DNA of 64,000 bases from Chiloscyllium plagiosum (GCF_004010195.1 NC_057737.1:1582779-1646778), one strand, 5' to 3'. Counted from the stretch's first letter, positions 6,494 to 58,221 are shown. Notes: generated from the sequence alone by a model not told the origin. Made by a program: numbers and translations.

Positions 6494-6577
6494 GATGAAG
6501 AGCTTATGCCCAAAACGTCGACTCTCTTGCTCCTTGGGTGCTGCCTGACCTGCTGTTCTTTCCACAGTTTTCGACAA
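6494..6577 (+). mobile_element. Solo mini PLE pLTR with degenerate hammerhead
   Basis: Begins (T)GATGAAGAGCTTATGCCCAAAACGTC. The exact 11-bp TSD TGAGTCAAAGT lies at 6483-6493 and 6578-6588. Confidence 0.75.
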
Positions 6578-7659
6578 TGAGTCAAAGTACACAATTTCAC
6601 ATCAAATGTGATGTTGTGGTTGAAACTTCACCACTGGATCAGAGAGTTGCAAGTTCAAACCCCAATCTAACTAAATGGTTCACTCTGTTACAGAATCCCA
6701 TATCCCTATAACATTGCTTAAACAGATCAGCTGGTCTTATCACCCTCGCTGTTTGACAGAGCTTGCTTTGTGGAAATTGGCGAGTTTCCATATATTACAA
6801 CGGTAGCTACAAAAAGTATTCCATTAGCAGTAATGTTATTTGGGATGTCCCGAGATTGTGAAAACTGCCATATCACTTTGATAAGCACAAAAGCTCAGCC
6901 CAGCTCGAGAAAAGAGCTAAACAAAATTAGCAATGACTAGAACACAATCTCTGTATCTTTTTCTCAATCTTCACATCGGAGGGCTTTCAACAACTTCTGA
7001 ATCTCTCATTGTGTTGTAAGTTTTTAAAGACACTGGGCCCTTTATTTACATCATCATATTTTCCCTTGAGAGCTAGCCTCCAGTTGTACATGGAGATACT
7101 ACTTTGGCGTCTTTGTGGCAGTTTGATAATTATAATAGGCTACTCAATATTTGCGTCACCAAACTAGCCTGTGGCCATTACAGTCTGGCACGATCCCCAC
7201 CTCCTCCTTTTAGCCCATAGGCACTGTTTTGCTTGCCATTAAACAATGCTGTTTGAGGTCATTTTGCATACAGTGGCAGCCATGTCCACACCTTCCCTTT
7301 CCTGGAGCCAGTAAGGACTGCAGATATGGAAGTCTGCTTGTGTTTCCTGCTTATGTTAGTAAGTCAGATTAATGTTAGCCCATGTGCAAACACCAAATAC
7401 AACCAGTTCATTTTGAAATACTTCAACTCTGTAACCTCAACGAAAATTCTCATGTTGTTATGTGAGAGAATTGCATTTATGCAGCGCCTTTCTTGACCTC
7501 TGACTTTGAAATGCTTTGTTTCATTCAATGAAATAGCTTTGGAAAAATTGTAATGGGCAAACGTGACCCTCATTTTCAGACAGCTGGCTCCCACAAATGA
7601 CAATAAAATAAATAAAGACAGAAAATGCTGGAAATATTCAGCCAGTGAAGGAAATGGAT

Positions 7660-7920
7660 CACCTGATTATCTTTCTTTAACGATTGTTGGTTGAGAGATA
7701 AATATTAGTCAGGTCACCAAGCGTTCTTCTCTACTCTTCTTCCAATGTGAGATCTTTTATATCCACCTAGGAGATTAGACAAGTCTTTGTTTTAACATCA
7801 CCACTGAAAGATCACATTCTCCATGAACTTAAAGCTGGAGTATCAGCCGTGAGTCTGAAGTCTCTGGAGTGGAATTTGAACCCACAGCCTTCTGACTTCG
7901 GGATGAAAGTTCTCTCACTT
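7660..7920. mobile_element. Ancient Deu-domain/SacSINE-like SINE remnant; related copies at ~14140-14480, 16900-17100, 59950-60330 and 63100-63240
   Basis: Shared degenerate motif among these copies (GATCTTTT..ATCCACCT..GAG...GTTTAAC) plus a B-box-like TTGAACCC. The family name is from recall. Confidence 0.45.
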
Positions 7921-8951
7921 TCTGTCTACAGTTACAACTGTTCCTGTGCCAGATCCTTCACCACACAATCAATGGACTCTGTGTCCCAGTGTACGTGGTG
8001 CAGGATTTAATCATCATTATTCCACTCATCTATTTGACATAACATTTCAATGTTTTGTTGAAACTTTCTGCTGAGAATTAAACAGTTCAGAAGTAATATA
8101 CACATTTATTACAGAGAGAACACTGTCAGCCTCAGGATTATATAATGTGGTTGAGGTCTCATAAGAGCATCACATCTAAAAGACAGGCAAAGGTATATTT
8201 CTGCAGTTATGCACTGACCTGACTGAACTGAAATATCACTTAAGTGTAGCTGAAAAAAAGACGTATTTTGTTTCTGTCTTGCAATTATTTATGTTCTGTT
8301 GTTACCCAATACATTGGTATTTTTTGTGAATTAGCATTAGGATGAAAACATTGACAAAATATGACTTTTTTTAGCAATACTAATGTTCCTTGCTAATCCA
8401 CTACCCTCTTTGCTAAAATATGCTCTTGACATCAGAATTGCGTGGCTTATCTTAATTGTAAGATTCAATCTCCATTGTTCCAGAATCCCCCACCAGAGGA
8501 AACCTGCATCAGTCCTGTCCAATCCATTTTGTAGGTTTAAATACCTTAATCACATTACCTCTTGTTCTCCAATCTTTCATGAATACATGTGAAAACTATC
8601 CCAACTTGTTTCTATAAATGTATTGTCTCTTAGTGTTTATTTTAAAAATTATTTCTGTGTAATTAGATATGCTGCTGAGAAACTGATTGAGCCACAAATG
8701 AAGACATTTGGAGATGCTCTGTGGAAAAGATGGGTTTGAGAACCTTTTTAAAGGCAGGCTGGGATGAGAGAAATGCAGTTAGGACTCTACACTAACCACC
8801 ATCAACTAAAATGATTGATTTTCCCTAACTCTCAGCAACAGATGCCAAACATCTCTGCATCTGGAGATCACATCCGTCATGTTTCCTACCATTAATGGTG
8901 TGTAAAATGACCATCATGTTTCTGAGCAAAGTACATCACAAAAACAGATTG

Positions 8952-9505
8952 TAGAATCATAGAGATGTACAGCTCGGAAACAGACCCTTCAGTCCAACTT
9001 GTCCATGTCGACCAGATATTCTAAATAAATCCAGTCCCATTTGCCAGCATTTGGCCCACATACCTCTAAACGCTTCCCACTCATATACCCATCCAGATGC
9101 CTTTTAAATGTTGTAATTATACCAGCCTCCACCACTTCCTCTGGCAGCTCATTTCATACACGTACCACCCTCTGCATGAAAAAGTTACTCCTTGGGTCCT
9201 TTTTGTATCTTTCCCCTCTCCCCTTAAACCTATGCCCTCTAGTTCTGGACTCCCCCAAGCCAGGGAAAGACCTTGTCTATTCACCCTATTCATGTCCCTT
9301 ATGATTTTATAAACCTCTATAAGGTCACCCCTCAGCTTCCAACAATCCAGAGAAAACAGCCCGACCCTATTCAGCTTGTTCCTGTAGCTCAAACCCTGGC
9401 AACATCCTTGTAAATCCTTTCTGAACCTTTCTAAGTTTCACAACATCCTTGCTATAGAAGGGAGACCAGAATTGCACACAATATTCCAAAAGTGGCCTAA
9501 CCAAG
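8952..9505 (-). mobile_element. CR1 LINE 3' end
   Basis: ORF 9117-9392 (GLFSLDCWKLRGDLIEVYKII) is the CR1 ORF2 C-terminus, followed by the 3' UTR. Confidence 0.85.
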
Positions 9506-9964
9506 GGTCATTTGCTCTAATTGATGCATGCTTATTTTATATTTTACACAAACATCCTGCCAAATTATTCATCCGATCAACATATTCTTCCTCTCCACCT
9601 TCCTTCCTTTCTCAGATCCTCATCGAGCTTTCCTTTAAACACATGTAATGCTCCCTTTGGTGATGAGTTCTGTGTTCCTTCTACTCTGGGTAAATAGGCT
9701 CCTCTCAATTCCCTCTGGGGTGTATTATTCATTCTTTCAGAGGGAAATCTCCAAGCAGGTAGTGTTTTAGATGTAAAACACATCATTTATTTATTTGGCT
9801 CCAATTTAAGATTATAAAGGCCAGTGGGAATGAATAAATTTGCAACTGTTTTTCAGAGCCAAACCCATTCCTAGAGGAATGAGACATGTTGCAATTAGGT
9901 CAGCCAATGTAGTACTGCACAAATATACCTTTTTCTACATTAGTCCAGGGAACAATTTAACATG

Positions 9965-10795
9965 GTTCAGGAAGGTTTGCAGATGACATCAAAATTGGTG
10001 TTGTAGTGAATAAAGAAGAAGGTTGTCTCAGAGTACAGTTGGACCCATGATATGATGGGCCTGTAGGCTGAGGAGTGGTAGACAGAGTCTGATTTAATGT
10101 GAGGTATTGCATCTTGGAAAGGCAAATCAGGACTATGCACTTAATAGTAAGGTCCTGGGGAGTGTTGCTGAACAAGGAGACTGATAGAGTTCAGGTTCAT
10201 AATACCTTGAAAGTGGAGTCACAGGGAGACAGGATAGTAAAGAAGACATTTGGCATGCTTGCCTTTATTGATCAGTACGTTGAGTATAGGAATTGGGATG
10301 TCACGTTGCAGCTAAGCAGGACAATGGTCAGGCAACTTTTGGAATGCTTCATACAATTCTGGTTGCCTTGCTACAGGAAGGATGTTGTTAAACTTGAAAG
10401 GGTTCAGAAAAGCTATCCAAGGATTTTGTTTGGATCGGAGGGCTTGGGCTTTTTCCCTGGAGGCTGAGGAGTGACCTTATAGAGGTTTCGAAAATAATAA
10501 GGGGTGTGGATAGGGTGAATAGCCAAGGTCTTTTTCCCAGGGTAGGGGAGTCCAAAGTTAGAGAGCGTAGATTCCCATTTAGGGTGGTGCATGTATGAAT
10601 TAAGCTGCCAGAGGAAGTGGTGGAGGCTGGTACAATTACAGCATTTAAAAGGCATCTGTGTGGGTACATGAATAGGAAGGGTTTAGAGGGATATGGGCAA
10701 AATGCTGGCAAATGGGACTAGATCAGTTTAGGATACCGGATTGGAATGGATGACTTGGACTGAAGGGTCTGTTTCTGTGCTCTACAGCTCCAAGA
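9965..10795 (+). mobile_element. CR1 LINE 3' part (frameshifted)
   Basis: FADD-K motif followed by KVESQGDRIVKKTFGMLAFI...QFWLPCYRKDVVKLERVQ and the 3' UTR. Confidence 0.85.
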
Positions 10796-11299
10796 CCTGA
10801 AACTGATGATTAATTAAATATTGTATGTTCAGCCTGAGAATGATTGATGAATTAAAAGAAAAATGTCCATTTTTATTTGCTCTTGGGATTATTATTATTG
10901 ATTATGTATCTGTAGCGAGTATAATTATAAAATATGTTCTGACTTTTGAAGAGATGGCAACCTTTGTTACACTGTCTGTTCTGTGGCTCAAAATTTAAAG
11001 TTGTCGTTTCCAAAAAGCTTGTCCACAACGTATTGCGGCCACGCTGCAATTGGTTACCATTCCAAACCCCAGTGAATTCTCAACCTTGGTAACGTAGCCA
11101 CAGAGAGACAGAGAGCGGAAATCCAGCCATTTCTACCAGAACGGGAGGGAATAACGAGAAGACCAGCAGATTTGATCACTACTGAGACCAGTCAATCCCT
11201 GACTTGGAAAGGGATCAGAGGTCAAGTATTTGGTTTTGTCCCTGGCTGGAATCCAAGCCTGCTTGCAAGTATTTACAGTGGAAATGGAAATATTAACAT

Positions 11300-12273
11300 T
11301 TACAGGAGCAGGATGCTTGCTCCAATGGCACACGGCTTTGGTGAGACCACACCTGGAATATTGTGTGCAGGTTTGGTTTCCTTATCTGACGAAGAATGTT
11401 CTGGTGATAGAGGGATTGTAACAAAGGTTGACCAGACTGATTCCTGGGGTGGCAGGACTAACATACGAAGTATGACCTGGATCAGTTAGGACTACATTCC
11501 CTGAAGTTTGGAAGAATGCCAGGGGATCTCACAAAAACCTATAAGATTCTAACGGGACGAGACAGGGCAAACACAGGAAAGACGTTCCGAATGATCACTC
11601 TATTTTGGAAAACAAATAAGGTCAGGACATCTACAATTAATGGTAGGGCCCTGGGTAATGCTGTAGAACAGAGAGACCTAGGGGTTCAAGTATATAATTC
11701 ATTGAAATTTGCATCACAGGTAGACAGGGTGGTTAAGAAGGTGTTTCATGCGCTTGCCTTCATTGCTCAGACTGTTGAGTATAAGAGTTGGGACATCACG
11801 TTGAGGTTATACAGAATGTTGATGAGGCCTCTTCTGGAGCACTGTGACCAGTTCTGGTCACCCTGTTATAGGAACGCTCGTATTAAACTGGAGAGGGTTC
11901 AGAGAAGATTAACCAGGATGTTGCCAGGAATGGAGGGTTTGAGTTCTAAAAATAATATGGAAAGGCTCGGATGTTTTTTCGTGGAGGGTAGGTGATTGAG
12001 GGGTGACATTATTGAGGTTTATAAAATCATGAGGGGTATAGATAAGGTGAATGACAAGAATCTTTTCCCGAATGTGGGGGAATTCAAAACTAGGGGGCAT
12101 ATTTTTTGTGGTGAGGAGAAAGATTTAAAAAGACATGAGAGGTAACGTTTTTACATAGAGGGTGGTTCTTGTCTGGAATAAACTACCAGAGAAAGTGGTG
12201 GATGTGGGTTCAGTTAACAATGTTTAAAAGACATTTGGGTAAGTTCATGAATAGAAAAGACTTGGAGGGATAT
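11300..12273 (+). mobile_element. Two adjoining CR1 LINE fragments; the second is interrupted by a PLE and resumes at ~13785-13890
   Basis: LVRPHLEYCVQ (11340) and ORF 11516-11995 (RDLGVQV...IKLERVQRRLTRMLPGMEGL). Confidence 0.85.
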
Positions 12274-33465: not shown

Positions 33466-33559
33466 TTCCACATCAACCTTGTCAAGACCATTCAGCATCA
33501 TATACACTTCCATCAACTCACCTCGCACACTTTTGAATTCCAATTAAGACAAGTCCAGC

Positions 33560-34607: not shown

Positions 34608-34692
34608 CACTCACTCCCAGCACCTCTCACCCACTCACTCCCAGCACCTCTCACCCACTCACTCCCACCACCTCTCACTCACTCACTTCCAG
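34608..34692 (+). repeat. 24-bp minisatellite running into the gap
   Basis: CACTCACTCCCAGCACCTCTCACC, about 3.5 units. Confidence 0.9.
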
Positions 34693-35192
34693 NNNNNNNN
34701 NNNNNNNNNNNNNNNNNNNNNNNNNNNNNNNNNNNNNNNNNNNNNNNNNNNNNNNNNNNNNNNNNNNNNNNNNNNNNNNNNNNNNNNNNNNNNNNNNNNN
34801 NNNNNNNNNNNNNNNNNNNNNNNNNNNNNNNNNNNNNNNNNNNNNNNNNNNNNNNNNNNNNNNNNNNNNNNNNNNNNNNNNNNNNNNNNNNNNNNNNNNN
34901 NNNNNNNNNNNNNNNNNNNNNNNNNNNNNNNNNNNNNNNNNNNNNNNNNNNNNNNNNNNNNNNNNNNNNNNNNNNNNNNNNNNNNNNNNNNNNNNNNNNN
35001 NNNNNNNNNNNNNNNNNNNNNNNNNNNNNNNNNNNNNNNNNNNNNNNNNNNNNNNNNNNNNNNNNNNNNNNNNNNNNNNNNNNNNNNNNNNNNNNNNNNN
35101 NNNNNNNNNNNNNNNNNNNNNNNNNNNNNNNNNNNNNNNNNNNNNNNNNNNNNNNNNNNNNNNNNNNNNNNNNNNNNNNNNNNNNNNNNNNN
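34693..35192. other. Assembly gap (exactly 500 N)
   Basis: Run of N. The round length suggests an unsized scaffold join. Confidence 1.
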
Positions 35193-35634
35193 GACGAGGA
35201 AGTACAAGTCCTGGAGGGGTGGGGGCATGAGCAAAGGAACTGTCCTCAGGCAGGTCACTCTACACTTTATACATAAATGATTGTGAAGACCATTGGGGCT
35301 TTGATTGCATGTTCCCCAAGAGACTGAGGGGATGGTTCTCTCCTCTGTAATACTGAGCCACACAAGATAGGGAGGCCCAGTAAAACCCTGTGCTGAGGTA
35401 CCTGGGATATTGCTTCAGTCATCCTGGGCTTGGGCAGCAGGGAATCCATCAATTCCTAATACTCGAACTAGCAATCCTGTGTTTCTGACTGTATCTGTGT
35501 GTCCCTGTGGTTTATGTTTCATCAACATTACACACATTAAAACACGTCTTTCTGTGCCATTTGGGTTACCAGTTGGTTGAACTCCCTTTATCTGTTTGAT
35601 AGGATGCTGAGGATGAGACTGAATGTACTGCTAA

Positions 35635-35796
<162 letters not shown>

Positions 35797-37341
35797 TAGC
35801 TAGTCACTGGGGTCACGTGCTAGCCCAGTGCATTCTGCACCATACACACTGAGCCATCATAATCAGTACAGCCCGCCCTCCACTGTGTCCAAGAAGGTAT
35901 TAGGGCAAATGGCCAAAATAGTCTTAACAGAGAGTCGAAAAGGGGAGAGGGGGGTGTAGGTGTTTAGGGAGGGAATTTCTGGGTTTACAGGCCCAGGTAA
36001 CTGCCTTAGTCATTAAAATTGGGGGTGTTCAAGAGACCGGAACTCAAGAGTTAACAGAGGATTATGGAGGAGCTAATGGAGATACAGGAACTAAGCCCAT
36101 GGAGAGATTTGATTACAAACATTAGTATTTTACATTTAGGGCATTGCCAGACTGGGATAAGTCAGAATTTTGATGAGTGTTAAGATATAATTAACATCCA
36201 GCAACCTGATGCAGATGGATAGGCTGATGGGATTTGTCATGTTTCCGAATGATTCCTTGCCTTTACTGGGAATGCAAGAGCAGAGAGTATTCCAGAGGTG
36301 GAGATTTTTGACTATTAGTTCAGTCCTGATGTTATGCTTCATCACCTCTGGATTCCAGCAGTGTCCTGGCTGTAGTGTTTGTTCTGAACTGTTGGAAGCT
36401 CTTCCAGCCAGATTCTCACCTTCAGGCACATCCCTGTCTGCTTGCATTGTATTCCATGGACCCATCACCCTGTATGTGCCCTGTCTCCCAGTGCAGCTCT
36501 GAATTTCTTACCATTGTGTTTGAGGGGGAGAGCCACAGTTTTGAAATTCTGGGTAAAAATGTACCAGACTGGGCAATGAGGGCTTTTCACACACTGCTGA
36601 AACTCTCTGCACAAAGGCAGCCCTGACCCACAACCTGACATCTCCACCACGGGTTGGGCAAAGAGGCAGGTCCTGAATACATCCTCAGGCCTGAATGGGA
36701 ATTGAACCCTGTGCTGTTGGCCCCAACCAGCTGTCCAACTGATTGAACTCACAGAAACACCCCCCACCCCCACGTCTGTGTTGCTGTGCCTTTTACACAC
36801 AGATTGTAACCTGGAGTTGTGGTTAGTGATGGATTCCTTCACGTGGCTGACCAGGAATATCTCCCGCTCTTACTGCCTGTCACTGGCATTTGTTCTAAAG
36901 ATTGACAAATTGATAACCAGGCTGCTGAGGGAGCCAGTGTAACAATCGTGATTCTGTAAACACTTTAGTTTGGTCATGTTTTAAACACGCCTTCCTTGGT
37001 CATTAAATGCGAGAGTGAACCCAGAGTTTCTGCCCCAGAGACAGGGACACTGCTCACTGTGCCTCCATTTTACACACAGAGGAGACAACTGCATTGGATT
37101 TAGAGCATAAACAGGCCATTCGGCCCAAGCACTCTTTGCTAGTGTTCACAGTCCACACTTACCTCCTCCTCTTTCATCTCCTTCATCGCAGTCTTTCACA
37201 AACCTTTTTATTGCCTTTTCTCTCATTTATTTGACCAGCTTCCGGATGAAACTTTGTTTCAATCACATTCCATGCCAAGGACTACCATATTCTCACCAAT
37301 TTCCAAACACAGAAAGTTCTCCTTATTCCATTATTTTAATG

Positions 37342-37543
37342 GAGAAAGTGAGGTCTGTAGATGTTGGAGATCAGAGCTGAAAATGTGTTGCTGGTAAAGC
37401 GCAGCAGGTCGGGCAGCATCCAAGGAACAGGAGAATCGACGTTTCGGGCATTCCTGATGAAGGGCTTATGCCTGAAACGTCGATTCTCCTGTTCCTTGGA
37501 TGCTGCCTGACCTGCTGTGCTTTACCAGCAACACATTTTCAGC
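37342..37543. mobile_element. 202-bp fold-back mini-PLE with intact hammerhead core, in a BLTP2 intron
   Basis: Arms 37375-37450/37469-37544 are reverse complements. The core CTGATGAAGGGCTTATGCCTGAAACGTC is at 37454-37481. The exact 15-bp TSD TCCATTATTTTAATG lies at 37327-37341 and 37544-37558. Confidence 0.9.
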
Positions 37544-37879
37544 TCCATTATTTTAATGTTTTATAACTTCCTTGTATTTATGGGCCTGGTTTTCCATTCT
37601 TCCCCAACTGGATTGAATTATTGTCTTCTGGTCTGATTTCAAAATCCTTAATTAGACCACATTCTTTAAACAGAACAAAAACCTTAACCCAATTAATCTT
37701 CCCCTGCAGGTAGCTGTAATCTTTTTGCTCTGACAAAATTCTTCTCCAGCATTTTCATAGCCTTTCTTTAATAAAGGAACTTAAACTATGTAGTTATCCA
37801 AGTATGATCTGCCTAGCTGCACTACGTTTAACAATACTTTTGTCTTTGCAATTTTGTATCTTTTATAATTAAATCACAG

Positions 37880-38165
37880 CAGGCAGCATGGTAGCTCAGT
37901 GGTTAGCACTGCTGCCTCTCAGCACCAGGGACCTGGGTTCGATTCCAGTCTCAGGTGACTGTGTGGAGTTTGCACATTCTCCCCGTGTCTGCGTGGGTTT
38001 CCTCCGGGTGCTCCGGTTTCCTCCCACAGTCCAAAGATGTGCAGGTTTGCGTGGATTGGCCAATGGGAAATGCAGGGTCTGGGTAAGGTAGGGTAGGGTA
38101 GGCTGTCTGAGGATTGGTCTGGATTAGATGGGCCAAATGGCCTACTTCCGCACTAAGGTTCTGTG
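37880..38165 (+). mobile_element. HE1/V-SINE-type SINE
   Basis: A box, B box GGTTCGATTCC and V-core. Confidence 0.85.
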
Positions 38166-38469
38166 ATGCTTTGTTAGGTTTTTAAATTGTTTTACGAACC
38201 AATGATGTTATTTTTGCCATATGATCCCTTTGCTCATCTTCACCATTCAACTTTTAACTTCCTGAAGTGTTGGTAATGTTCTGTGCTTCTCACTCAACAC
38301 CTGACAGTGGCAAAGGTGGGAGGATGTGTGTTAAAGTCAGTCTGGACAGTGGGTCGGAAACATTTGTGGGAGAGATACTGAACAAGGGAAATCTCAGTGA
38401 GGGTGCCAGAGGGTTGGCTGTTCAGAGGGGGCGGGGGCAGGGGGGACAGTCAGGGATCAGGGAGAATTT

Positions 38470-39594
<1,125 letters not shown>

Positions 39595-39645
39595 TAGGAG
39601 TTTTTGTGTGGGTTGTGTGTTTCAATAAACACTCTCATTTTCTGA

Positions 39646-39792
<147 letters not shown>

Positions 39793-40359
39793 TGATCAGA
39801 ATGATCGTCTTTGTCTCAGTTTCTTTAACAATCGCCATGGTGGTCTCCTCCTGCCTTCGCTCCCTCAACAATCTCCACTGTCAGATTCCTGGTACTCCTT
39901 TGCTGTTTTCTGAGTCGCCCCCAATTCTTGGGCTTACCACGTTTTCTGACATTCTTATAATCCACTTCCTTTGATCTAATAGATTCTTTAACTCTTTTTA
40001 TTATCAATGTTATCTGGGCACCAAGCTCTGGGATTACTAAGTTAACCCTCCTTTACTTCTCTCTCCAAGCTTTTGGTCATGACCTAATGTCTGGATATAT
40101 GGCTCAACTTCAAACTTTACTTAATAATTGCTCCTGTGAGGCATCCTGGAATGATATTCCTGATTCCTGGATTTTCCCAGTCAGCCAGCTCCCTGATCCA
40201 TGTTGCTGATAGATGGTTTCGGCTGAGGGAAGTCCCTCCTTTGATCCCATACCTCCAACACTGTGACTGCAACTGAAGGAAATGGGGCTGAGCATCAACA
40301 TTCCCAACTCCTGTCAGAATTACCACCATCGCTGGGTTTACTGCACCTAAAGGACCATA

Positions 40360-40750
40360 AGAAACAGGAACAGGAAGAGGCCGTTCAGCCCCTCGAGCTT
40401 GCTCTGCTATTCAACAGGACTATGGGTGATCCGAGATTCCTCACAGCCACTCGCCTGAATTTTCGCTGGTACCCTTGTTTCCCCGACTGATCACGAATCT
40501 CTCTGTCTCTCTCGGCCTTAAATATCCACACGGACTATGCCCTCACAGCCTCTGTGGCAGGGAGTTCCAAAGACACTCAACCCTCTGACAGAAAAAATTC
40601 CTCATCTCAGTCAGAAATTGGAGCCCCTTTATTCTGAGACTAAACCCTCTGGTCCTAGTCTCTCCCATAAGGAGTGACATTTTCTCAGCATTAACCCTGT
40701 CAAGCCCCTTAAGCATCCTGAATGTTATAATGAGATCACCTCTGATTCTT
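40360..40750 (-). mobile_element. CR1-type LINE 3' end
   Basis: RIRGDLIITFRMLKGLDRV...FFCQRVECLWNSLPQ. Confidence 0.8.
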
Positions 40751-40962
40751 TGAAAATTCTCAGTTTTACACCCAGAAATGGCTTGTGTGAATCTGGTGGT
40801 GTGGAGTTGAAGATATTTGCACTCTCCTCTCACACATCTGGGTATTCCACATTGAAGGGCATTGTGTGTCAGGGTCCACTATTAGTCTTGGCTGGAGAGG
40901 GAGCCAATCACTACATAATGATCTGTAATAGGAACCTTTATTAATTTAGCCTCCAAGTATAA

Positions 40963-42470
<1,508 letters not shown>

Positions 42471-42546
42471 AAATATCCAGCGCGAGAGGCCTTTCTGTAA
42501 TTCTGCCTCTACGTGGCCTTTAGATGTGATGGTGGAAAGGTCCTGA

Positions 42547-42819
<273 letters not shown>

Positions 42820-44181
42820 TAGCCACTTCAACCGTATTCCATTGTCATGGAAAGTCACTGAATAGTAAGTCTGGTTTTATTCAGTCTCCCCTCATGTTTA
42901 CTTGTCCACGAGACCCTGTCAGAATAGGCAGATCAACTCACAATGAGCTCTCATCCCAGTGATCCTGCACCCTGCTGCTCTTGTGTGAGCTATACTGATG
43001 TGGACTGCATTCAGTATTGAGTTCGCACTGAATTTGTGACAATGAGGAATAGGTTTAAGTCCCATTAGTTCATCTAGTCTGTGCGTAACAGCTGGGAGAT
43101 CTTATACAGCATGACCGAGACTGACCTTGTAATCTCCTTGGAGATGAGGACAGTGAAGGTAAAAATTCTGCTGCAGCAACTGAAACTAGCCCAAATCTCT
43201 GAGTTACACTGCAGCGTTCCCACCTTTTGTACAAAATTGTTTTAATTTTGGTCAGTTCCCACTTAAAGGGATTCAGAGAGTGGCTTCTTCTGCACTTGCC
43301 CCCAGCCTGTTCCAGCGAGGCCACATTCTCTGGAAGAGCAGCCTCCTGGTGACTGCGGTATCAATTAGCAGAGCAGGCTCAAGGGGCTGCTCCTGATTAT
43401 GTTCTCTGTCTAACCCAGTCCTGCCATTAAGTTAATTGTGACCTGTCGTCCCTCTTGAACCTGTCCAGTTGCATCTTACATCATTATTCTGTATTAATAG
43501 TTGCCATTGTCCCAGAGGACCATGGAGCTGCTCTCTCATTAGAGAGAGGTGACTGCTCAAAGTTGAACCTGAGGGTCACCAAACCACAGGCAAGGTCAAG
43601 CAAAGCAGGAATTGAACCCACACTATTGGCATAATCATGCATTGCATACCAGCCGTCCAGCCTACTGTGCTAACCAGCTCAGTCTTGGTACTTTACCGGA
43701 GCAATTAAACCTCGTTCTAAATTACCTCATCCAGAGCTAAGATCTTAGATTTCCTACAGTGTGGAAACAGGCCATTTGGCCCATCGAGTCCAAACAGCAT
43801 CCTACCCAGACCCACCAGGAGAGAATATGGAACTTCCTACCACAGGGAACATTTGAGGCAAATAATATACCTATAAGAAGGAAGGTTGATAAACAATTGA
43901 GGGAAAAAGGAATGATGGCATGAAGTGAACTGGGATCAGGAGGATAAAATCACAAGAGAATAAATGTTGGCATCATTCTGAAGAGAAGTCTTATTTAAAC
44001 CAGAATCTTGACACTTCAACAGATACAGCCAGAACTGCTGAGCATTCACTGTCTTTATTGCAGATTTCAAACAGCTGCAGTATTTTGCTTTTGTTACGCC
44101 ATCACAGCTCATTCAGGGTGAGCAGCCAGGTTGTGTGCCTCAAATAATTAACAACTCTCTGTACCTGTCTAGGTAGTGTAG

Positions 44182-44466
<285 letters not shown>

Positions 44467-44653
44467 TGCCAGAGATTGATGGATCAATTCTCTCACTCTT
44501 TGCCTCCTTAGAGACAACACGGTGGGCTTCAAGAGGAATATAGTGCTGGGCATTACACAGCCACTTGCTCCTCTCCACCAGACTCAAATATAACCCTGGG
44601 CACTTTCAGCTGCTGTAAAATTGTGTAAAAAAAAAAAGTTATTAAAAGCTTTT

Positions 44654-45780
44654 AATAAACTGTGATGTAATTAATATTCACACTAAAAAGCTGCACTGTT
44701 TTGTAGTAACTGTAAAATTTGTAATTTACTGTTTTCTTTGTCTTTCAGCTGTAATCGTGATATTTTAAAAATTGAGCAAATTATTTTCCTTTCCACTTTA
44801 CCAAAAATGAAAGTTCTGGAAACTTTAGCCAAATGACTATGAACTGTCCAACAGTAGCCCAGGAAGCAATGAATCAGTTAACACAATTGACTGGTCTCTA
44901 TCTTCATTGGATCCAGTTTATGGGCGAGTACCTGATTTGTGTTGGTGCTTTCTGCTGAGGCCTGTTGATGCATGATCACTGGGTGATTCAAGTTTGTATC
45001 TGTCCCTGTTTATGAACAGTCTCCCCTGTTACTAGGGACATAGGCTGGGAGCCTTGTGATGTTACCTGGAACACAGCCCCTTCAAATTCCCACTCCAGTT
45101 ATGAGAGGGAATGAACTGAGCTCCAGATAACATCCTCACTATAAGGATTGTTTTGTTTTGAGAATGTAGATACCCACAGGAACAATACGAAGAAAGCAGC
45201 CACTCAGCGAGAAAAACTACAGAATCAGTTTCTGCTAATTCAATATTTTATCATTTAACCCTTGAAGGATTTTGTAGGAAATTTGCAGGGAGAATTGAGC
45301 TTCTTTGATACTGGGAGGCAGCTTTCTTTTGGTGATATTTCGTGGTTATGGGAAATTTGCTTCACCTGCCTCTTTACACTTTTCTTTGCCCATGTTTGCA
45401 GGGGAGTGGCTATTGGAGGAGGGTTTGTGGGTCTGTACACAATACCCCATTCTCCCATCCCACCTTTTAACTTAAAGTCACCATCGTGGTGCTTTTGGGA
45501 AGTGTTTAGTTCCCTAACCATACCCATACCCTAAAGTACAAACTTACATGGTAAGCACCACCCCCAGTTTTTTTTTTAAGGTTTCAGCTCTGAGCACAGT
45601 TGCACGAGCCATGTACTCAGGATGGGCCAGTGGAATCCTCACATTGTTGTTATAATCAATGCATTGCTTTTTTATAAAAAAAAAAGAATTATTGATTGTT
45701 TTTAAGCAGGTGCTGCTCTGGGTCACAAGTTCCACTGTAACAAGTTCATGAACGTAAAAATGCAAAAGGCTAGGAATAAA
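44654..45780 (+). terminator. Candidate BLTP2 polyadenylation signals
   Basis: AATAAA at 44654-44659 and 45775-45780, within unique, TE-free 3' UTR-like sequence. Confidence 0.5.
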
Positions 45781-46349
45781 GTTGTTTTGTAACAATTGAT
45801 TGTGCATGTTTCTCATTCAGTTAGAGGGCAACCTCAGGACACCTCAAAGTGCTTTTAAAAGTGTCTGCAGTGTTTTAACTAGGGCAGGTTACCGTGCACA
45901 ACAGTAACTTGGTGTTACTGTCCAGCTGAAAGGACAAAGTGGGGCTTTTCAATACTGATCTATGACAAGGCAAAAAGCTCTGAGCTCTGCAATTCCTTAC
46001 AGCACAGGACGCCATTGAGTCCATACCATCTCTTCAAAGAGCAATCCAGTCAGGCACCCTTCATCCCGAGATGCTTTTGATTCTGTGACCAAGACAAATT
46101 GCAGGCATTGCTTCTCATGACCCTAAAAACTTACATTAAGCAAGAGATCAAGGCTGGGAGGTGCAAACTGGTGAGTACACATGGCTGTTTCTGTCTGAAA
46201 TAAACAGGGCAGTTGAACATCTGTCTCCTAGTTGCATCATCGTGTTTTCAATGGCAGTATCTATAATAGGAGCATGCAGCTGGCGTCACAAATACTTTCC
46301 TCTGAATAATCAATGAAGTCTACAGATAGGTACTTCACTGAGGAACATT

Positions 46350-46672
46350 CACAGAATCCCCACAGTGTGGAAACAGACCCTTTGCACCAACAGGTCCACA
46401 CCGACCCTCTGAAGCGTAACCCACCCAGCCCCATTCCCCTACCCTATTACTCCATATTTCCCCAGATGAATGCATCTAAACTACACATTCCTGAACACGA
46501 TGGGCAATTTAGCATAGCCAATTCACCTAATCTGCACATCTTTGGATTGTGGGAGGAAACTGGAGCACTCAGAGGAAACTCACACAGACGTGGAGAATGT
46601 GCAAACTCTACACATGGTGGCTCAAGGCAGGAATCTAACCTGGGTGGCAGCAGTGCTAACCACTGAGCCACT
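46350..46672 (-). mobile_element. HE1/V-SINE-type SINE between the convergent BLTP2 and EMC6 3' ends
   Basis: Reverse-strand A box and V-core. Confidence 0.8.
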
Positions 46673-46824
46673 CTTCATTTTTCAGCACACCTTATTTTAA
46701 AGACTCTGCTGCACTGAGAACATCTCAACAATATAACACCACCCCTCCCCCCCCAATTTTCACAGCTCAAACAAGCCTTAACTATGAACTCAGACGGAAC
46801 TGACATGTGAACAGCCAGGTTGAG

Positions 46825-46830
46825 TTTATT
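46825..46830 (-). terminator. Candidate EMC6 polyadenylation signal
   Basis: AATAAA on the minus strand, about 1.2 kb past the EMC6 stop, at the end of unique sequence. Confidence 0.5.
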
Positions 46831-48060
46831 GTTGTAAAATACAGGCAGGCAGCCTGGAAACATGAATTAAAACAAGGTTATTTGCTACTTTTCTGAAACA
46901 TTCACTGGTTCCCACAAAAATGGGCAAATGTCTCTTGTTAAAAACATATCAATTACCATCAGTAGTGACAAAATTATTTAATTGTAAATCCCTGATTCTC
47001 AGATTTTGAACTTGTTACAGCCTATGTCACAGTGAAACTGATTCCAGCTTTCCCTGCTGTGTTCCAGGATCTCATTTTAAACCTGTCTGCACTCAAAGAT
47101 ACTTCAGCAGCTTCCCAGTCTTCCATTTTCCCCAAATAGAGATGTGAACCATAGAATAAACTTGGTAATGATATAGAAACTGCCAAGCCTCGAAGACTTT
47201 GGCAGTCATGCTCCAACCAATCCCTTCTCTGCACAAAGAGCCATCCCTGTGGGACTCGTTCAGCTTCTGTCGAGAATACCCCCTGAGAATTCCATGACCC
47301 AGCACTGAGGGAGGGAGGATGGCCTGCTAACAAATAAACAATACAGTGAAGACAGAATTCCAAAAGGCACTGCATGCCAGGTGAATACGGACTGTCCTGT
47401 CACAGAGTACAGGAGGCTGGAGCCGGATGTTGGGGCATGGTGCAAGAGGCAATGATCACAAAGCTCCTGATCCCCTGTCAGTGGAGCCTCCACAGGGGAG
47501 GGAAGGTCAGTGCCAATGATCAAGGGGATTACTCACTGCATGCAGTTAGGGAAGTGAGGGGGGGCTGGGGGTGGCTCTCTGTCACAACACATACTAAGTA
47601 GTTAAGTCGAGGCAGGTAATGAAGGGGGAGGTTGGAATCCCAGGGAAAATCATCTCCCCCTTTTCAACAAATACTCTTCATAATATGGTAGAAGAATTTA
47701 AAATCTGTGGCCTCTGCCCAGGAGTATCCATCAACAAGAAGTAACCAGTTCCACAACTCCCCTCACTGACCCATAAAAAGGTTGAGGAACATCCTGGCTG
47801 ACAAAACTCTTCAGCTGCTTTACTGCATTTGGAACGGGAGACTGAAACATTCCCACAGCCTCAGTGATCAACCCAACCACACAAAACTTAAAGACAACAG
47901 AGCCTAAAGCACAATCTGACCTCACAACTGGGAACAGAATCTGTGCAGTTTATGATGATGACAGGTTTAATTTGTAAGATTCAACAAGTGGATGGAGGTG
48001 AGGGTGGAAGTGTTTGTGCTGCTCCAATTGTCTGATGGGAGCAGGAGGCAATTTCCTGCT

Positions 48061-48393
48061 TCAATAAACGTGCACCATGCCATACAGGAAGGTCCAGAAC
48101 AGGATGTAGGTGAAGAGGCCACCGACAAGGCCTCCAGTGAAGAGAGGGCGGCGAGACTTGAAATACTTGCTCCAGCGACGTCCAGCTTTTACAATGAGCA
48201 GCACGGAGAGGAGGAAAGAGGCAACAAAGTAGAAGATGAAACCTGTCAGTGCCGTCAACCCCAGGATCCCAGCAGTGGCACCCGACAGTGCAGACACAGA
48301 CGTGCGGCAATAGTCCAGGATGGCAGCGTTTCCTCGCACTGCTAATTCGCTGATAAACTGTGGACCTTCTCGTTTAAAACCCACAGCAGCCAT
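48061..48393 (-). CDS. EMC6: ER membrane protein complex subunit 6
   Basis: 110-aa intronless [35 protein letters not shown]...[14 protein letters not shown] splice acceptor (TTTTCCTCCCAG) lies 19 nt upstream of the ATG. Confidence 0.98.
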
Positions 48394-48719
48394 GACAAGC
48401 TCAGTAATTCTACTGGGAGGAAAAGCAAATTAATGTTGAGTGAATGAAGGGTGGGGGTGTAATAATAGGAAACAAGAACAACTTGTGGAGATATAGCATC
48501 CTGAATATAGTGAAACATTCTCAAGGTGCTTTCCAGGAGAATTAATCAAACAAACAGTTTGACAGCTACCATAGGAGATGTCAGGTAGGACAGTAGACCA
48601 AAACATTGTTGGAAAGATGGAGGGTTGTAAGGAGCATCTTAGAAATAGGTCGATCAAATTGGATGGCAAGGATATGTTTGGCTCAGTTTCAAACAGAGGC
48701 TGGGAAGATTAGAAATTCC

Positions 48720-49465
48720 AAAGCTTCACAATCCTACAAGAGAAGATATTTCTCCTCATCTCAGTCCCAAATGGTCAGCCACTTATCCTGAGATTGTGCC
48801 ATGTTTTAGATTTCCCCAGCCAGGGGTATCTGCTTCTGAACATCCACAAAGTCAAGCACAACCAGAATCTCATGTTTCAGCTTGATTTCTTCTAAACTCC
48901 TTGTGGGGCCCATTCTACCAAATCTCTCCGTGTAGAATAATTCCCTTTTCCCAGGAGGAAATCAAGTGAACCTTGTTTGCATCAGGTAAACATATTCTCT
49001 CTTAGGTACAGAGGCAAACTGTGTACATTACTCCAGGAACAATCTCACCAAAGGTCCACACAATTGCAGCAAGATAGTGTTACTTATAGAGTCATAGAGC
49101 TGTCTAGCACGTAAAGAAACCCTTCAGTCCAACTCGACAATGCCGACCAGATATTCTAAAATAATCTAATCCCATTTGCTAGCATTTGGCCCATATCCCT
49201 CTAAACCTTTCCTATTCATTTACCCATCCAGATGTATTTTAAATGTTATTGTACCTGCCTTCACCACGTCCTCTGGCAACTCATTCCATACAGACACCAT
49301 CCTCAGCTTGAAAGAGTTGCCCTTTTGAAATGTTTCCCTTCTCAGCTTAAACCTATGCCCTCTATTTTGGACTTCCTACCCTGGGGAAACAATGTTGGCT
49401 ATATACGCTACCCATGACCTTCATGATTTTATAAACATCTAGAAGATCACCCCTCAGCCTCCAAA
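48720..49465 (-). mobile_element. CR1-type LINE remnants
   Basis: A CR1 3' UTR and C-terminus at 49085-49465, nested in an older fragment. Confidence 0.7.
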
Positions 49466-49596
49466 TTTCTTGTATTCCAATGTCATTGCAATTAAAAAAT
49501 CATGTCGTTTTCCTGCCGAAATGCTTGCTCTACTTGCATGTTAATTCTCCACCTTTCTCCTTCAATGAAATCAATTCATCATCATTTACCAGTTTT

Positions 49597-49905
49597 TAGA
49601 TTAGATTCCTTACAGTATGGAAACAGGCCCTCAGGCCCAACAAGTCCACACCGACTCCTCCGAACCCACGCAGATCCATTTCACAACCCATATTTACCCC
49701 TGACTAACGTACCTAACACTATGGGCAATTTAGCATGGCCAATTCTCCTCACCCGCACAACTTTGGACCATGGGAGGAAATCGGAGCACCCGGAGGAAAC
49801 TCATGCAGACACTGGGAGAACGTGCAAACTCCACACAGAGGCAGGAATCGAACCCGGACCCCTGGCGGATGAGGCACCAGTGCTAACCACTGAACCACCA
49901 TGCCA
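49597..49905 (-). mobile_element. HE1/V-SINE-type SINE
   Basis: Reverse-strand A box, B box (GGTTCGATTCC), V-core and (CTAAT) tail. Confidence 0.85.
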
Positions 49906-49957
49906 CACCAGTTTTGTTTAAAAGAAAACCCAGTGTGGAAACAGACCATTTAGCCCA

Positions 49958-50692
49958 ATGCGAGGTGCTGCATTTTGGGAACGCAAATCTTAGCAGGACT
50001 TATACACTGAATGGTAAGGTCCTAGGGAGTGTTGCTGAACAAAGAGACCTTGGAGTGCAGGTTCATAGCTCCTTGAAAGTGGAGTCGCAGGTAGATAGGA
50101 TAGTGAAGAAGGCGTTTGGTATGCTTTCCTTTATTGGTCAGAGTATTGAGTATAGGAGTTGGGAGGTCATGTTGCGGCTGTACAGGACACTGGTTAGGCC
50201 ACTATTGGAATATTGCGTGCGATTCTGATCTCCTTCCTATCGGAAAGATGTTGTGAAACTTGAAAGGGTTCAGAAAAAGATTTACAAGGATGTTGCCAGG
50301 GTTGGAGGATCTGAGCTACAGGGAGAGGCTGACAGGCTGGGGCTGTTTTCCCTGGAGTGTCGGAGGCTGAGGGGCGACCTTGTAGAGGTTTACAGAATTA
50401 TGAGGGGCATGGATAGGATAAATAGACAAAGTTTTTTCCCTGGGGTTGGGGAGTCCAGAACTAGAGGGCATAGGTTTAAGGTGAGAGGGGAAAGATATAA
50501 AAGAGACCTAAAGGGCAACTTTTTCATGCAGAGGGTGGGTACGTGTATGGAATGAGCTGCCAGAGGATGTGGAGGAGGCTGGGATATGGAATGGCTGCTG
50601 GCAGGTGGGACTAGATTGGGTTGGGATATCTGGTTGGTATGGACAGGTTGGACCAAAGAGTTTGTTTCTATGTTGTACATCTCTAGGACTAT
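49958..50692 (+). mobile_element. 5'-truncated CR1 LINE inserted in a SINE (SINE parts ~49930-49957 and 50693-50920, minus)
   Basis: CEVLHFG...RDLGVQV...LEYCVRF and the 3' UTR. Confidence 0.9.
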
Positions 50693-51054
50693 AAGTCCAC
50701 ACCAACCCACCGAACAGTATCCCACCCAGACCCATCACTCTCAACGTGCCTAACCCTCAACACTATGGGCAATTTAGCATGGTCAATCCACCTAACTTGG
50801 ACTGTTGGAGGAAACCAGAGCACCCAGTGGAAATCCACACAGACACAGGGAGAATGTATAAACTGCACACAGTCACCCAAGGATGGAACTGAACCTGGAT
50901 CCCTGGTGTTGTAAGCCACCATTTCACCCCGAAATAAATAACATTTCGATTGTCTTTCTAACAAAGTGAATAACCTTACATTAACGTCAGTTACATACAA
51001 AGTAAAGTTCCCTCTACTCTATTAAACTTACTGCCTCCTCCAGCCTGTCTCCAT

Positions 51055-51240
51055 CAAACATCCAAAGATGTGCAGGTTAGGCCCTGAGTGTTCAGGAATG
51101 TGTAGGTTAAGTGCATTAGTCAGAGGTAAATGTAGAGTTATAGGGCCGGGTAATGGGTCTGGGTGGGTTAGTCTTTGGAGGGTCGGTATGAACTTGTTGG
51201 GCCGAATGGCCTGTTTCCACATTGTAGGGATTCTATGATC
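51055..51240 (+). mobile_element. HE1/V-SINE-type SINE 3' half
   Basis: TCCAAAGATGTGCAGGTTAG...CTTGTTGGGCCGAATGGCCTGTTTCCAC. Confidence 0.75.
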
Positions 51241-51382
51241 CCAGGACAAGTACAGCATGGAGTTAGACTGAGCAAAGTTCTCTCTCTCTCTCTGTACGCT
51301 GTCTCCATCACTCCCAGCAGATACAATACCTGTTTTATACATAGTACAGAGCTGTGTTCAGTGACATTTATACTGTGTAGGT

Positions 51383-51610
51383 GGGGGGAGGGGCTCCTTG
51401 TGGGACAATGCGATGCTCCCCCATGGGGGCTGCCCTCTGCTGGTCACCGCGGGGACAGCGGGGGGAGGGGCTCCTTGTGGGACAATGCGATGCTCGCCCA
51501 TGGGGGCTGCCCTCTGCTGGTCACCGCGGGGACAGCGGGGGGAGGGGCTCCTTGTGGGACAATGCGATGCTCGCCCTTGGGGGAGCCCTCTGCTGGTCAC
51601 CGCGGGGACG
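51383..51610. repeat. 77-bp minisatellite x3 carrying CTCF-consensus motifs
   Basis: Period 77 (CTCC at 51394, 51471, 51548). Each unit contains GCCCTCTGCTGGTCA. Confidence 0.9.
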
Positions 51611-52520
51611 GCACACCTGCCCGGGGTCCTTCCGCCACCCAGCTGTCCAACCCGGTGCCAAACCGGGAGTGGCGGCGCGCCTCAAACGCGCATCCTTCTC
51701 TTCCGGCGCCGCGACTATTCAGCCTAGTGCGTGTTACCGAGCCTCCGTGTCGGCGACAGGCAGCTAATCACTCACCGGCGCGGTACGCAGCTCTCTCACA
51801 CGGTAAGCAGCTTCCTGTCAACCTGCCGCCATTACACAGGAAGCCCCGCCCCCCGACCGTCACCTTTCACCTCTCACCCGCCCTTCCAGAAATAAAACCG
51901 ACATTTCTCAGGATTAAAGTAAATTCTGACATGGGTCAATCCAAACTTATTTTGGCTCTTCGATAATTTTAATTTAAACAAGCGAGATGTTGTCCGCCAG
52001 GGCCCGTCCCCAGGTTCATAGCCCCGCCTCCCAATGTAAGCCCCGCCTCCCAATGTAGGCCCCGCCCAGTCGATGACGACACAACAGACGCGACCTCGCC
52101 CATTTAATAACCACACCCCCTCACGAAGTGACGTTCCGTTTATGACTACCCCCCGTAGATAGCCCCGCCCATTTACGTGTCCGGCCAATCCACTGTGACC
52201 CCGCTTCCTTCACGTCCCCATCCCACTCCATCCAGCTCCGCTTTCCACCGTCCCGACCCATCACGTGGACGTCCCGACCCATCACGTGGACGTCCCTCTG
52301 CGTAACCCCGCCCCATCGCTCCACCCCCGTGCCCTCCACTATACAGCCACGCCCACTCCCCACGTCAGCCCGCCCCCCCTTTCACCAGCCTCGCCCTCTA
52401 TATTAGCCCCACCCCTACGCCCGGCGCGCACCTTCACCATCCCCACACGAGCCCCGCCCCTATGCCCGCCCCCACACGAGCCCCGCCCCCAAACAGTAGC
52501 CCCGCCTCTCCCACGCTGCT
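51600..52520 (-). promoter_or_regulatory. CpG-island promoter of EMC6
   Basis: Many GC boxes (GCCCCGCC), CCAAT (~52184), CRE-like GTGACGT, and tandem TCACGTG E-boxes in a 21-bp duplication (~52250-52295). Confidence 0.75.
51776..51830 (-). other. EMC6: Probable non-coding first exon of EMC6
   Basis: Minus-strand donor CCG|GTGAGT at 51775-51770 within a CpG island. YY1-like CCGCCATT, ETS CAGGAAG and GC boxes lie just upstream. It pairs with the acceptor at 48413. The TSS is approximate. Confidence 0.7.
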
Positions 52521-52539
52521 GTTCCCCTGACCCAGGGCT

Positions 52540-53250
52540 GGATGACACAAACAAGGATTGCTGAAAAATCTCAGCATCTGCGGAGAGAAATCAGAGCTAA
52601 CGTTTCGGGTCCGGTGACCCTTCCTCAGAACTGATGGTAGCTCAGAAAATGATGTTTTTTTACTTGGAGGCTGGGGTGTGGTGTACACTTTAAACAAGAG
52701 GTTTAAATAAAGCCCAGAGAGAGCAGCTGGACAAAGATATGGATAACGGTTAGTCTAAGTGATTGAATGGCTGCTAATGGGTGGTGTGTAGTAGTAGGAG
52801 AAAGTGAGGTCTGCAGAGGCTGGAGATCAGAGCTGAAAATGTGTTGCTGGAAAAGCGCAGCAGGTCAGGCAGCATCCAAGGAACAGGAGAAGCGACGTTT
52901 CTGACATGAGCCCTTCTTCAGGTGTGTAGTAGTAGCCCATGTGGTGATAGGGACTGGTGTGCTGGGGATGGAGTAAGGACATGAGACAAGCCCTAAAATT
53001 GTTCATCTCGAAATTGAATACAGAAGGCTGCAGAGTTCCCTAATGGAAAATGACGTCGATCTTCCGTGGTAGACAAGCAAGCAATACTGGAGATGTTGAC
53101 TTCTCCACCTCCTGATGCTGCCTGGCTTGCTGTGTTCTTCCAGCCTTTTGCTTGTCTACTTTGGATTCCAGCATTTTGCAGTTTTTTGTCTCTAACCGAG
53201 CTTCACTGGAGCACTACAGCACGGCTGAGACAGAGATGTATAACTCTATC
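52540..53250 (-). mobile_element. Penelope-like remnant (third family) with nested mini-pLTRs
   Basis: The minus-strand hammerhead CTGAGGA-A-GGGTC ACCG GACCC-GAAACGTT is at 52599-52628. Nested inserts lie at 52798-52920 and ~53066-53195. Confidence 0.7.
52798..52920 (-). mobile_element. Solo mini PLE pLTR
   Basis: The exact 15-bp TSD GGTGTGTAGTAGTAG lies at 52783-52797 and 52921-52935. The 5' end is at (CC)TGAAGAAGGGC. Confidence 0.85.
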
Positions 53251-53281
53251 AATAGACATAAATCTGGAAGAGCACGGCAGT

Positions 53282-58205: not shown

Positions 58206-58221
58206 CCTTTCCTTTGTACTG

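Follow-up and report, generated by a model that had tools for sequence, protein, structure and literature searches.

A stretch of 64,000 nt from the genome of Chiloscyllium plagiosum (GCF_004010195.1 NC_057737.1:1582779-1646778; hereafter "the window", with positions counted from its first letter) contains very short insertions, or stubs, headed by a putative hammerhead ribozyme, whose 5′ ends cluster near the CUGA box of the ribozyme core. In the window and throughout the 3.56 Gb of genome searched, these ends reflect a hard edge that precedes CUGA by 4 nt in family A and by 8 nt in family C. The stubs are probably pieces of Penelope-like elements (PLEs) of the Neptune type and likely represent complete run-off cDNAs of the first 90–130 bases of the element's capped RNA; they look like one-off by-products of an autonomous element and not like a self-amplifying family. 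The edge coincides with an initiator-like A located ~30 nt past a TATA(-like) box, and not with CUGA or the ribozyme fold. In the numbering used here the C of the CUGA box is 0 and upstream positions are negative.

The short insertions of the window

Three solo family-A stubs had been singled out by an earlier sequence-only reading of the window, and their exact target-site duplications (TSDs) of 11, 12 and 15 bp are confirmed. The first (6494..6577, + strand), which spans +2 to ~+85 without the tail, lies between TSD copies at 6483-6493 and 6578-6588 and shares with them the T of its CTGA, so that its start is +1 counting that base. In the second (18398..18490, + strand; TSD 18386-18397 / 18491-18502) the last three TSD bases (TCC) equal element positions −2..0, the start being −2 when these are counted, and in the third (52798..52920, − strand, with tail, reaching ~+125; TSD 52783-52797 / 52921-52935) the CC of the TSD is common with element positions −1..0, the start being −1 on the same reckoning. 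The three copies had been described as starting at or within CTGANGA; the true edge lies further out, at −4 in family A and −8 in family C, and the three solos are copies trimmed by 2–5 nt and then joined by microhomology.

The inversion points of three mini fold-backs had likewise been placed close to the core. Two of them have an arm starting from −5/−4: that at 37342..37543 (both strands; 15-bp TSD, 37327-37341 / 37544-37558) has a + arm running from −5/−4 (37449/37450) to ~+91 and an inverted arm from ~+13 to the end of the tail, and that at 42001..42135 (both strands; 9-bp exact TSD) has a − strand arm from −5 (42088) to ~+84 and an inverted arm made of the tail only. The third, at 56520..56683 (both strands), is centred at ~−1 of the core; it belongs to family C, and a search for a clear TSD around it found none, the best match being of 6 bp.

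A fixed 5′ edge throughout the genome

An age-unbiased picture of the 5′ ends was obtained with nhmmer from 80 arbitrary 10-kb stretches plus the window, which gave 186 arms; after removal of 50 weak or other-family matches, 11 window arms and two arms with an extrapolated core beyond the end of the stretch, there were 123 arms in 99 family-A insertions: 54 begin at the core and 10 downstream of it, 29 are long and six are censored. By extrapolation family A comprises ~580,000 arms in the genome, and it accounts for 1.7% of the sampled bases.

A second set, of young insertions, was chosen by the 3′ tail only, through a 36-nt tail pattern having 27,752 exact genome matches, from the first 81 of which, as listed, 80 insertions were taken (one match being the second arm of another insertion). 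The furthest upstream reach falls within −10..+10 in 62 of the 76 uncensored insertions, whereas 10 are long (L154 and L189 being counted so solely because of a piece past an N gap) and four begin further downstream; the plot of genome-wide breakpoints proposed with the original observation does show a peak near the core. The mode lies 3–4 nt upstream of the core, with 11 ends at −4, 11 at −3 and 31 within −3..−6, the last figure corresponding to 31 of the 46 insertions at risk. Expressed as a stop rate per nucleotide at risk, the values are 0.02% over +11..+78, 3.3% over +10..−2, 24.8% over −3..−6 and 0.6% over −11..−200. Another 30 young loci were viewed and are outside all tallies.

Since the predicted cleavage position of GAAACGTC falls after +27, the distance of ~28 nt originally given between the boundary and the cleavage site is right, and so is the contention that the boundary is not the end of a cleavage product: among the young insertions no end occurs at +24..+32 in 693 nt at risk.

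Fold-backs make up 48 of the 80 young insertions, and exact TSDs of 11–17 bp, with both copies intact and adjoining the stub, are found in 35 of the 80. In a control with swapped flanks, a TSD of at least 9 bp within 15 nt of the core arose in only 4 of 1,499 trials. Exact matches counted over the whole genome decrease from 29,950 for the pattern −3..+28 to 13,735 for −6..+28, a drop that takes place over 3 nt and of which a part is due to mutation and to microhomology at fold-back centres.

An extra G at the junctions

Family-A arms that end at A−4 and are preceded by a non-reference base number 5,610 genome-wide. In the first 100 listed, this base is G in 58, A in 26 and T in 16 cases; at the next position out, G is found in 24 of 88 non-C rows, close to the genome background of 26%, from which the excess of G at the junction departs with p ~1e-10. 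The count retains approximately six rows in which a long copy merely has a base altered at this position; when the rows having element-unlike flanks (as judged by eye) are taken, G occurs in ~31 of 53. GG is present in just 12 of the 58 G rows, so that what is added is a single G and not a run.

The same holds for family C, with 2,227 arms ending at A−8 genome-wide; 21 of the first 100 listed, being long copies in which one base is altered, were set aside; G precedes 62 of the 79 true junctions among the matches listed, or 37 of 54 after removal of every G that could be explained by the inverted arm. In L1 an untemplated 5′ G has been interpreted as the sign of a capped template (PMC6425141). 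By analogy, the extra G of the stubs would be the known mark of copying across the m7G (7-methylguanosine) cap; the two features expected of retrocopies of capped RNA polymerase II (Pol II) transcripts, namely a single untemplated G (58/100 and 62/79 against 26%) and a fixed 5′ end at promoter spacing, occur together here.

Promoter-like spacing of the edge

Long copies retain, upstream of the edge, what is absent from the stubs. With the TATA and initiator (Inr) consensus as guide, TATAAA is found at −38 in family C and −33 in family D, and families A and B have the less canonical TTTATCT at −35/−36; the initiator-like A is located at −4 in A and B and at −8 in C, so that the TATA(-like) box precedes the edge by 29–32 nt. 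In the window a long family-A arm keeping the upstream pseudo-long terminal repeat (pLTR) is located at 4232..4588 (+ strand), and its inverted partner at 3639-4080 (− strand) also holds the C-terminus of an open reading frame (ORF). The putative TATA-like box of this arm, TTTATCT (4457..4463, + strand, at −35), lies 31 nt ahead of the inferred start, and the initiator-like CTCA(+1)TT (4485..4490, + strand) offers as presumptive capped start the A at 4488 (−4), which is also the first base of helix I; the assignment of the start to 4488 derives from the genome-wide edge and the extra G. In a long family-C arm at 18660..18856 (− strand; core at 18743, inverted partner at 20064-20260) TATAAA is at −38 (18781-18776) and the A of the Inr-like TCCA(+1)CA at −8 (18751).

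Among 32 young family-C loci 17 reach −11..−2 (seven of them −8..−10), 10 are long and five begin downstream. Helix I of family C begins at −3/−4, so that the edge at −8 is outside it; therefore the edge tracks the promoter spacing and not the fold. In addition, family F, which has a hammerhead and an endonuclease end of the Penelope/Poseidon type, produces no stubs, all 15 copies sampled extending to −46 or further (loci L012, L013, L025, L032, L051, L054, L057, L067, L068 and L075). The spacing of TATA and Inr, the single extra G and the family-specific offset support a transcript start, one of the options contemplated by the sequence-only reading.

Two other origins of the edge were considered and rejected. 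A splice acceptor, as in Drosophila virilis, would call for an AG that is found neither before A−4 nor before A−8, and the upstream flanks contain no common exon; an endonuclease cut at ATT in the element's own pLTR does not suit family C, whose edge is ACAAYC and not ATT. A reading of GAAACGTC as resembling a downstream promoter element (DPE) was also discarded, the motif being 2 nt off the usual spacing and varying in position with the length of helix II.

The hammerhead motif and the parent element

The motif, to judge from its sequence, is a minimal type-I hammerhead such as that described in PMC4209133. In the window copy at 4492..4523 (+ strand) it consists of CTGAAGA, an extra A, helix II, GAAACGTC (with the palindromic ACGT) and the helix I 3′ strand GATT, with a predicted cut after 4519. 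All parts of the minimal PLE layout are recognizable, i.e., CUGANGA, an extra base, helix II, GAAA, a palindromic helix III, UH and a short helix I, the strands of which covary among families (ATTC/GAAT-GATT, AGTC/GACT, CAC/GTG, GCA/TGC). A scan for the motif gave 41 matches in 80 arbitrary 10-kb stretches and none in shuffled sequence. The 22 matches returned by an Rfam search at E values up to 1 included no hammerhead, only hairpin (microRNA-model) matches on the palindromes.

Upstream of the motif, long copies contain the end of an ORF coding for reverse transcriptase (RT) and GIY-YIG, a pyrimidine-rich untranslated region and the TATA(-like) box, while downstream the tail continues into the ORF leader. 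The ORF ends with a Zn-finger-like linker and GIY-YIG. Within the window these features are seen in the large family-B fold-back at 58221..59853 (both strands), which carries the ends of the GIY-YIG and Zn-finger-linker ORF and a hammerhead at 58309 (− strand), and the upstream pLTR is kept in both arms of the long family-A fold-back at 60502..61190 (both strands; cores at 60593, −, and 61066, +). At another locus (L019), both arms of which terminate with a family-A hammerhead, RVT_1 is detected with E 9.7e-8 and GIY-YIG with E 3.5e-4 and 21.3 bits, just below the Pfam cut-off of 22.6; RT and, at the C-terminus, GIY-YIG, the combination characteristic of endonuclease-containing (EN+) PLEs, are thus found together, as are a pLTR with a hammerhead, an optional tail of 30–40 nt, inverted or tandem arms and TSDs. 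A FPCHRRNCKTCAH-type motif precedes GIY-YIG in families A and B, which would accordingly be classed by their sequences as Neptune-type PLEs on the linker criterion (PMC8557442). The 3′ ends of the arms are at ~+77..+98 and, with the optional tail, at ~+125. A tblastn search of the RT against phages gave no match.

In the same L019 locus (2452-8952) the two family-A arms are head-to-head ~6.5 kb apart, one of them extending to the N-terminal part of the ORF, and a 206-bp stretch by the 5′ end of the ORF-bearing arm is a different, nearly identical multi-copy repeat. In one long copy (L034, upstream of the − arm at 3528) the GIY-YIG coding stretch is tripled in frame (CTRCGLLYIGGTGRLLAERFR).

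Templates and a possible mechanism

The long frame appears, from the sequence of one locus (L212), to open past the tail, at ~+165, and in three others (L096, L174 and L245) the tail continues into the leader that joins this frame; therefore some templates came from loci having the ORF downstream. One of these (L096) contains within a single 12-bp TSD two arms, each with the G-ATTC start, in the order G, −4..~+197, then G, −4..+90, from which it follows that the cDNA, once at the cap end, can continue along a second template. The mini tandems L096:1446-1741 and L245:1414-1672, each in one TSD, have the same organization, an arm to ~+197 in the leader followed by an arm to ~+90; their first arms terminate at nearly the same base, suggesting that the RT has a third site, close to +197, at which it starts or lands. 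A query with the leader, for which 40 of 1,179 first-look candidates were scored, gave 42 matches.

The junctions display microhomology and short templated inserts, and both junctions and short-arm ends vary from copy to copy. Short templated duplications of flank or element are seen at 5′ junctions (L096:1400-1446, L107, L117, L178), as in microhomology-mediated end joining. When the arms of 45 fold-backs were compared at three diagnostic columns, 12 of 87 comparisons differed (14%), whereas the figure was 4% elsewhere in the sequence and would be 41% upon random pairing, and in some family-C rows both arms, at −8/−7, carry different variants; a two-RNA origin is possible for some fold-backs. 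In nearly all mini fold-backs among L121-L200 the tail (+125) is present in one arm and missing from the other (~+83..+98). At one locus (L240) family-C units, all with a start at ~−3..−8, form a direct tandem interrupted by a short unique spacer.

These data are probably best accounted for by the following scheme. Pol II would start ~30 nt past the TATA box, at −4 in family A and −8 in family C, and cap the RNA; with a capped start just upstream, the hammerhead would be the first fold of the mRNA. The RT of the element would then prime inside the RNA, as suggested by PMC11167929 and by the 3′ ends at ~+90 and ~+125, using a site presumably present at both ends of a pLTR–ORF–pLTR transcript, the 5′ copy being used more often. 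The RT could copy through the uncleaved ribozyme up to the cap, adding a C opposite m7G, after which the cDNA end may be joined to the target by 1–4 nt of microhomology, often after the loss of a few bases, yielding a solo; alternatively, it may be joined to an inverted arm, yielding a mini fold-back, or continue on a second template, yielding a mini tandem. For the joining step the junction patterns are what is observed and the mechanism is what they suggest. Priming at the 3′ copy would give rise to the long, randomly truncated minority. A broader proposal may be put forward tentatively, the balance being in our view tipped slightly against it: integrated strong-stop cDNA would be the main product of Neptune-type PLEs, and the same cap-end event would drive pLTR regeneration, the RT jumping at the cap to an internal site of a second RNA (cf. 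L096) and, upon landing on a 3′ site, rebuilding the partial tandem, by which the missing TATA box is recovered. The hammerhead, as first fold of the capped mRNA, would serve mainly as an uncleaved structure for protein loading or initiation.

Alternative explanations

The template could have had a processed, uncapped 5′ end, a longer RNA having been trimmed to a protein-protected ribozyme domain, with the G representing an ordinary untemplated addition by the RT. We consider this unlikely, although it agrees with the coincidence between the family-A edge (−4) and the first base of helix I, with the protein assistance of the ribozyme of PAc, the Poseidon element of Anolis (PMC11167929), with the untemplated G and T produced in vitro at R2 junctions (PMC13000458) and with the failure to see the RNA start in the read run (polyA single-cell, ~2% read). 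It accounts poorly for the family-C edge, which is 4–5 nt outside helix I and 30 nt past a perfect TATAAA, and for family F, which has the same fold and no edge; moreover, a single G in 58–78% of the cases, instead of mixed bases or runs, is a better fit to a cap. Very improbable is the stop or template switch that the ribozyme fold was proposed to impose on the RT, so that cDNAs of long RNAs would end at the core: the ends of A and C are indeed within 10 nt of the core, many copies of B, D and E being alike by eye, and a TTC/GAA micro-palindrome at −3..+7 accounts for recurring fold-back centres, but the RT would reach the 3′ side of the fold first, precisely where ends are lacking (+24..+32), the edge shifts with the TATA box rather than with the fold, there is no stop in family F, and a pause leaves the extra G unexplained. 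Besides, the products of PAc shorten upon 5′ truncation of the template and are unaffected by mutations of the ribozyme (PMC11167929).

That the stubs constitute a self-amplifying family resembling short interspersed elements (SINEs) or retrozymes, re-transcribed from master mini copies, perhaps via circles, is suggested by the number of family-A arms, by their common 5′ end and TSDs and by the recurrence of some fold-back centres, and Inr alone might start transcription in the stubs that keep −6. Yet junctions, inserted bases and short-arm 3′ ends vary, the TATA box is lost in the stubs, some stubs carry the ORF leader, stubs and long copies contain the same sequence variants (by eye), and head-to-tail arrays cut at the cleavage site are not seen among the 80 insertions; the idea has, in our estimation, very little chance of being right. 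Of the tiny non-autonomous class of elements originally envisaged, the non-autonomous nature stands, but with variable junctions and the TATA box left behind, the stubs look like one-off products of the autonomous element rather than a self-amplifying family. Nor do they match non-LTR retrozymes, i.e., head-to-tail repeats with one hammerhead per unit, a candidate that was rejected: solos and head-to-head pairs dominate the 80 insertions and the few direct repeats are uneven. Finally, the short forms could stem from later deletion of longer insertions or from assembly or alignment artefacts. The upstream pLTR varies among subfamilies and could pile alignment ends at the core, and long copies are under-assembled, because long palindromes often hold N gaps; however, intact TSDs adjoin the stubs, the exact-pattern counts are alignment-free, in reads labelled as another organism the loose ends fall on this very base, and a deletion would add no G, so that this explanation is scarcely credible.

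Some observations weigh against the interpretation of the stubs as run-off cDNAs of capped RNA. About 28 of the 76 ends are at −2..+10 and require trimming as an additional step. TTTATCT, the box of family A, matches TATA poorly, a TTTATTC subfamily of A as well as family D miss the strict BBCABW pattern at −4, and at least one copy of family F contains TATAAA at −48 although this family yields no stubs, a clade difference that the scheme does not explain. The G tallies are hand counts of the first 100 matches on one contig, in the control at −13 a subfamily variant outnumbered the true ends (~6, one with G), and a single G could also arise when the RT adds a C at the end of an uncapped RNA. 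The table of RNA starts was empty for one polyA single-cell run (labelled as another organism, ~2% read), in which 127 loose ends at −4 with mixed flanks represent read-through of genomic stubs. Three attempts to find a full-length pLTR–ORF–pLTR locus gave only 5′-truncated copies or mini tandems, and for this reason cis use of the 5′ site of the mRNA and transcripts from 3′ pLTRs are both possible.

Relation to known systems

The stubs resemble minus-strand strong-stop DNA of LTR elements, in which priming near the RNA 5′ end gives a short run-off cDNA, and the single untemplated G that marks copying to a capped 5′ end is shared with L1-made retrocopies (PMC6425141); the difference is that the short cDNA would here be target-primed and would itself be inserted in the genome, hundreds of thousands of times. 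As to the EN+ Neptune PLEs (PMC8557442, PMC3846280), the likeness extends to the RT with C-terminal GIY-YIG, the Zn-finger-like linker, the hammerhead in the pLTR, the optional tail (~34 nt), the inverted or partial-tandem insertions and the TSDs. The excerpts describe variable 5′ truncation, whereas in this genome the majority of copies stop at a single fixed position, preceded by an extra G, and for this reason look complete at the RNA 5′ end. Very short PLE insertions, with a median of 128 bp, have been reported as 5′ truncation (PMC9977147).

For PAc, internal priming, the tail and the use of uncleaved RNA have been shown in vitro (PMC11167929): the RT starts internally at two sites one tail apart, both strands are extended, cleavage is unneeded and no ends occur at the cleavage site, all of which resembles the present case. 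In the excerpts of that paper the transcript start is not mapped and run-off products are not discussed; furthermore, the ORF of PAc starts in helix II, whereas here the frame appears to open past the tail, and no stubs come from the Poseidon-type family present in this genome. The hammerheads of metazoan PLEs (PMC4209133) share with those described here CUGANGA, the extra base before helix II, the palindromic helix III and a 4-bp helix I, and they are mostly single motifs ascribed to truncated PLEs, along with opposite-strand pairs 100–700 bp apart; breakpoints are not analysed in the part available, and the model given there, in which the ribozyme cuts a precursor and forms circles, differs from the present situation in that the copies here retain the sequence 5′ of the cut.

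The promoter of D. virilis Penelope also has its start inside the pLTR, mapped by 5′ rapid amplification of cDNA ends, and partial tandems supply the promoter, but it is a TATA-less Inr/DPE promoter and an intron separates start and ribozyme (PMC2377424); here the inferred start adjoins helix I, a TATA box is upstream and the edge has no AG acceptor. Non-LTR retrozymes (bioRxiv 10.64898/2026.07.22.740005) are, like the stubs, non-coding, derived from PLE pLTRs, provided with a type-I hammerhead and often monomeric; they are defined as head-to-tail repeats with a ribozyme per unit, whereas the stubs are solos, head-to-head pairs and uneven tandems from an inferred cap site. The architecture of PLEs, their minimal hammerheads, internal priming and promoters in the pLTR have all been published (PMC8557442, PMC3846280, PMC4209133, PMC11167929, PMC2377424), and no report that PLE 5′ ends coincide with a capped start was found in the literature searched, which covered few subscription journals and not the supplementary figures on PAc. 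Within that literature it is the interpretation of the short copies that is new, and not the components.

Should this reading be correct, most of the so-called 5′-truncated PLE copies of this genome would be complete copies of the front end of the RNA, and the stubs would locate, from DNA alone and to the base, where transcription of each family begins, with the mark of the cap. The ribozyme would be uncleaved in the inserted RNAs, in agreement with the in vitro result on PAc, and internal priming would be tied to the question of pLTR regeneration, for which no obvious mechanism is known (PMC2377424). Given the abundance of family A, repeat libraries that treat stubs as SINEs or as miniature inverted-repeat transposable elements would mislabel them. 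The G test is applicable to any PLE-rich genome.

Other repeats

The window also contains GC-rich tandem or satellite-like repeats at 17884-18337, 41294-42459, 51383-51612 and 54442-54727, the second of which encloses the fold-back at 42001-42135. Outside the window, the flank of one sampled locus (L207:1-1070) resembles by eye an LTR-retroelement pol fragment. Two further families of interspersed repeats are present in many copies in the window, at 8949-10796, 19023-22776, 49084-50696 and 53277-54318, and 15689-16284 and 23212-23544; by appearance they are LINE-like (long interspersed element) and SINE-like 3′ ends.

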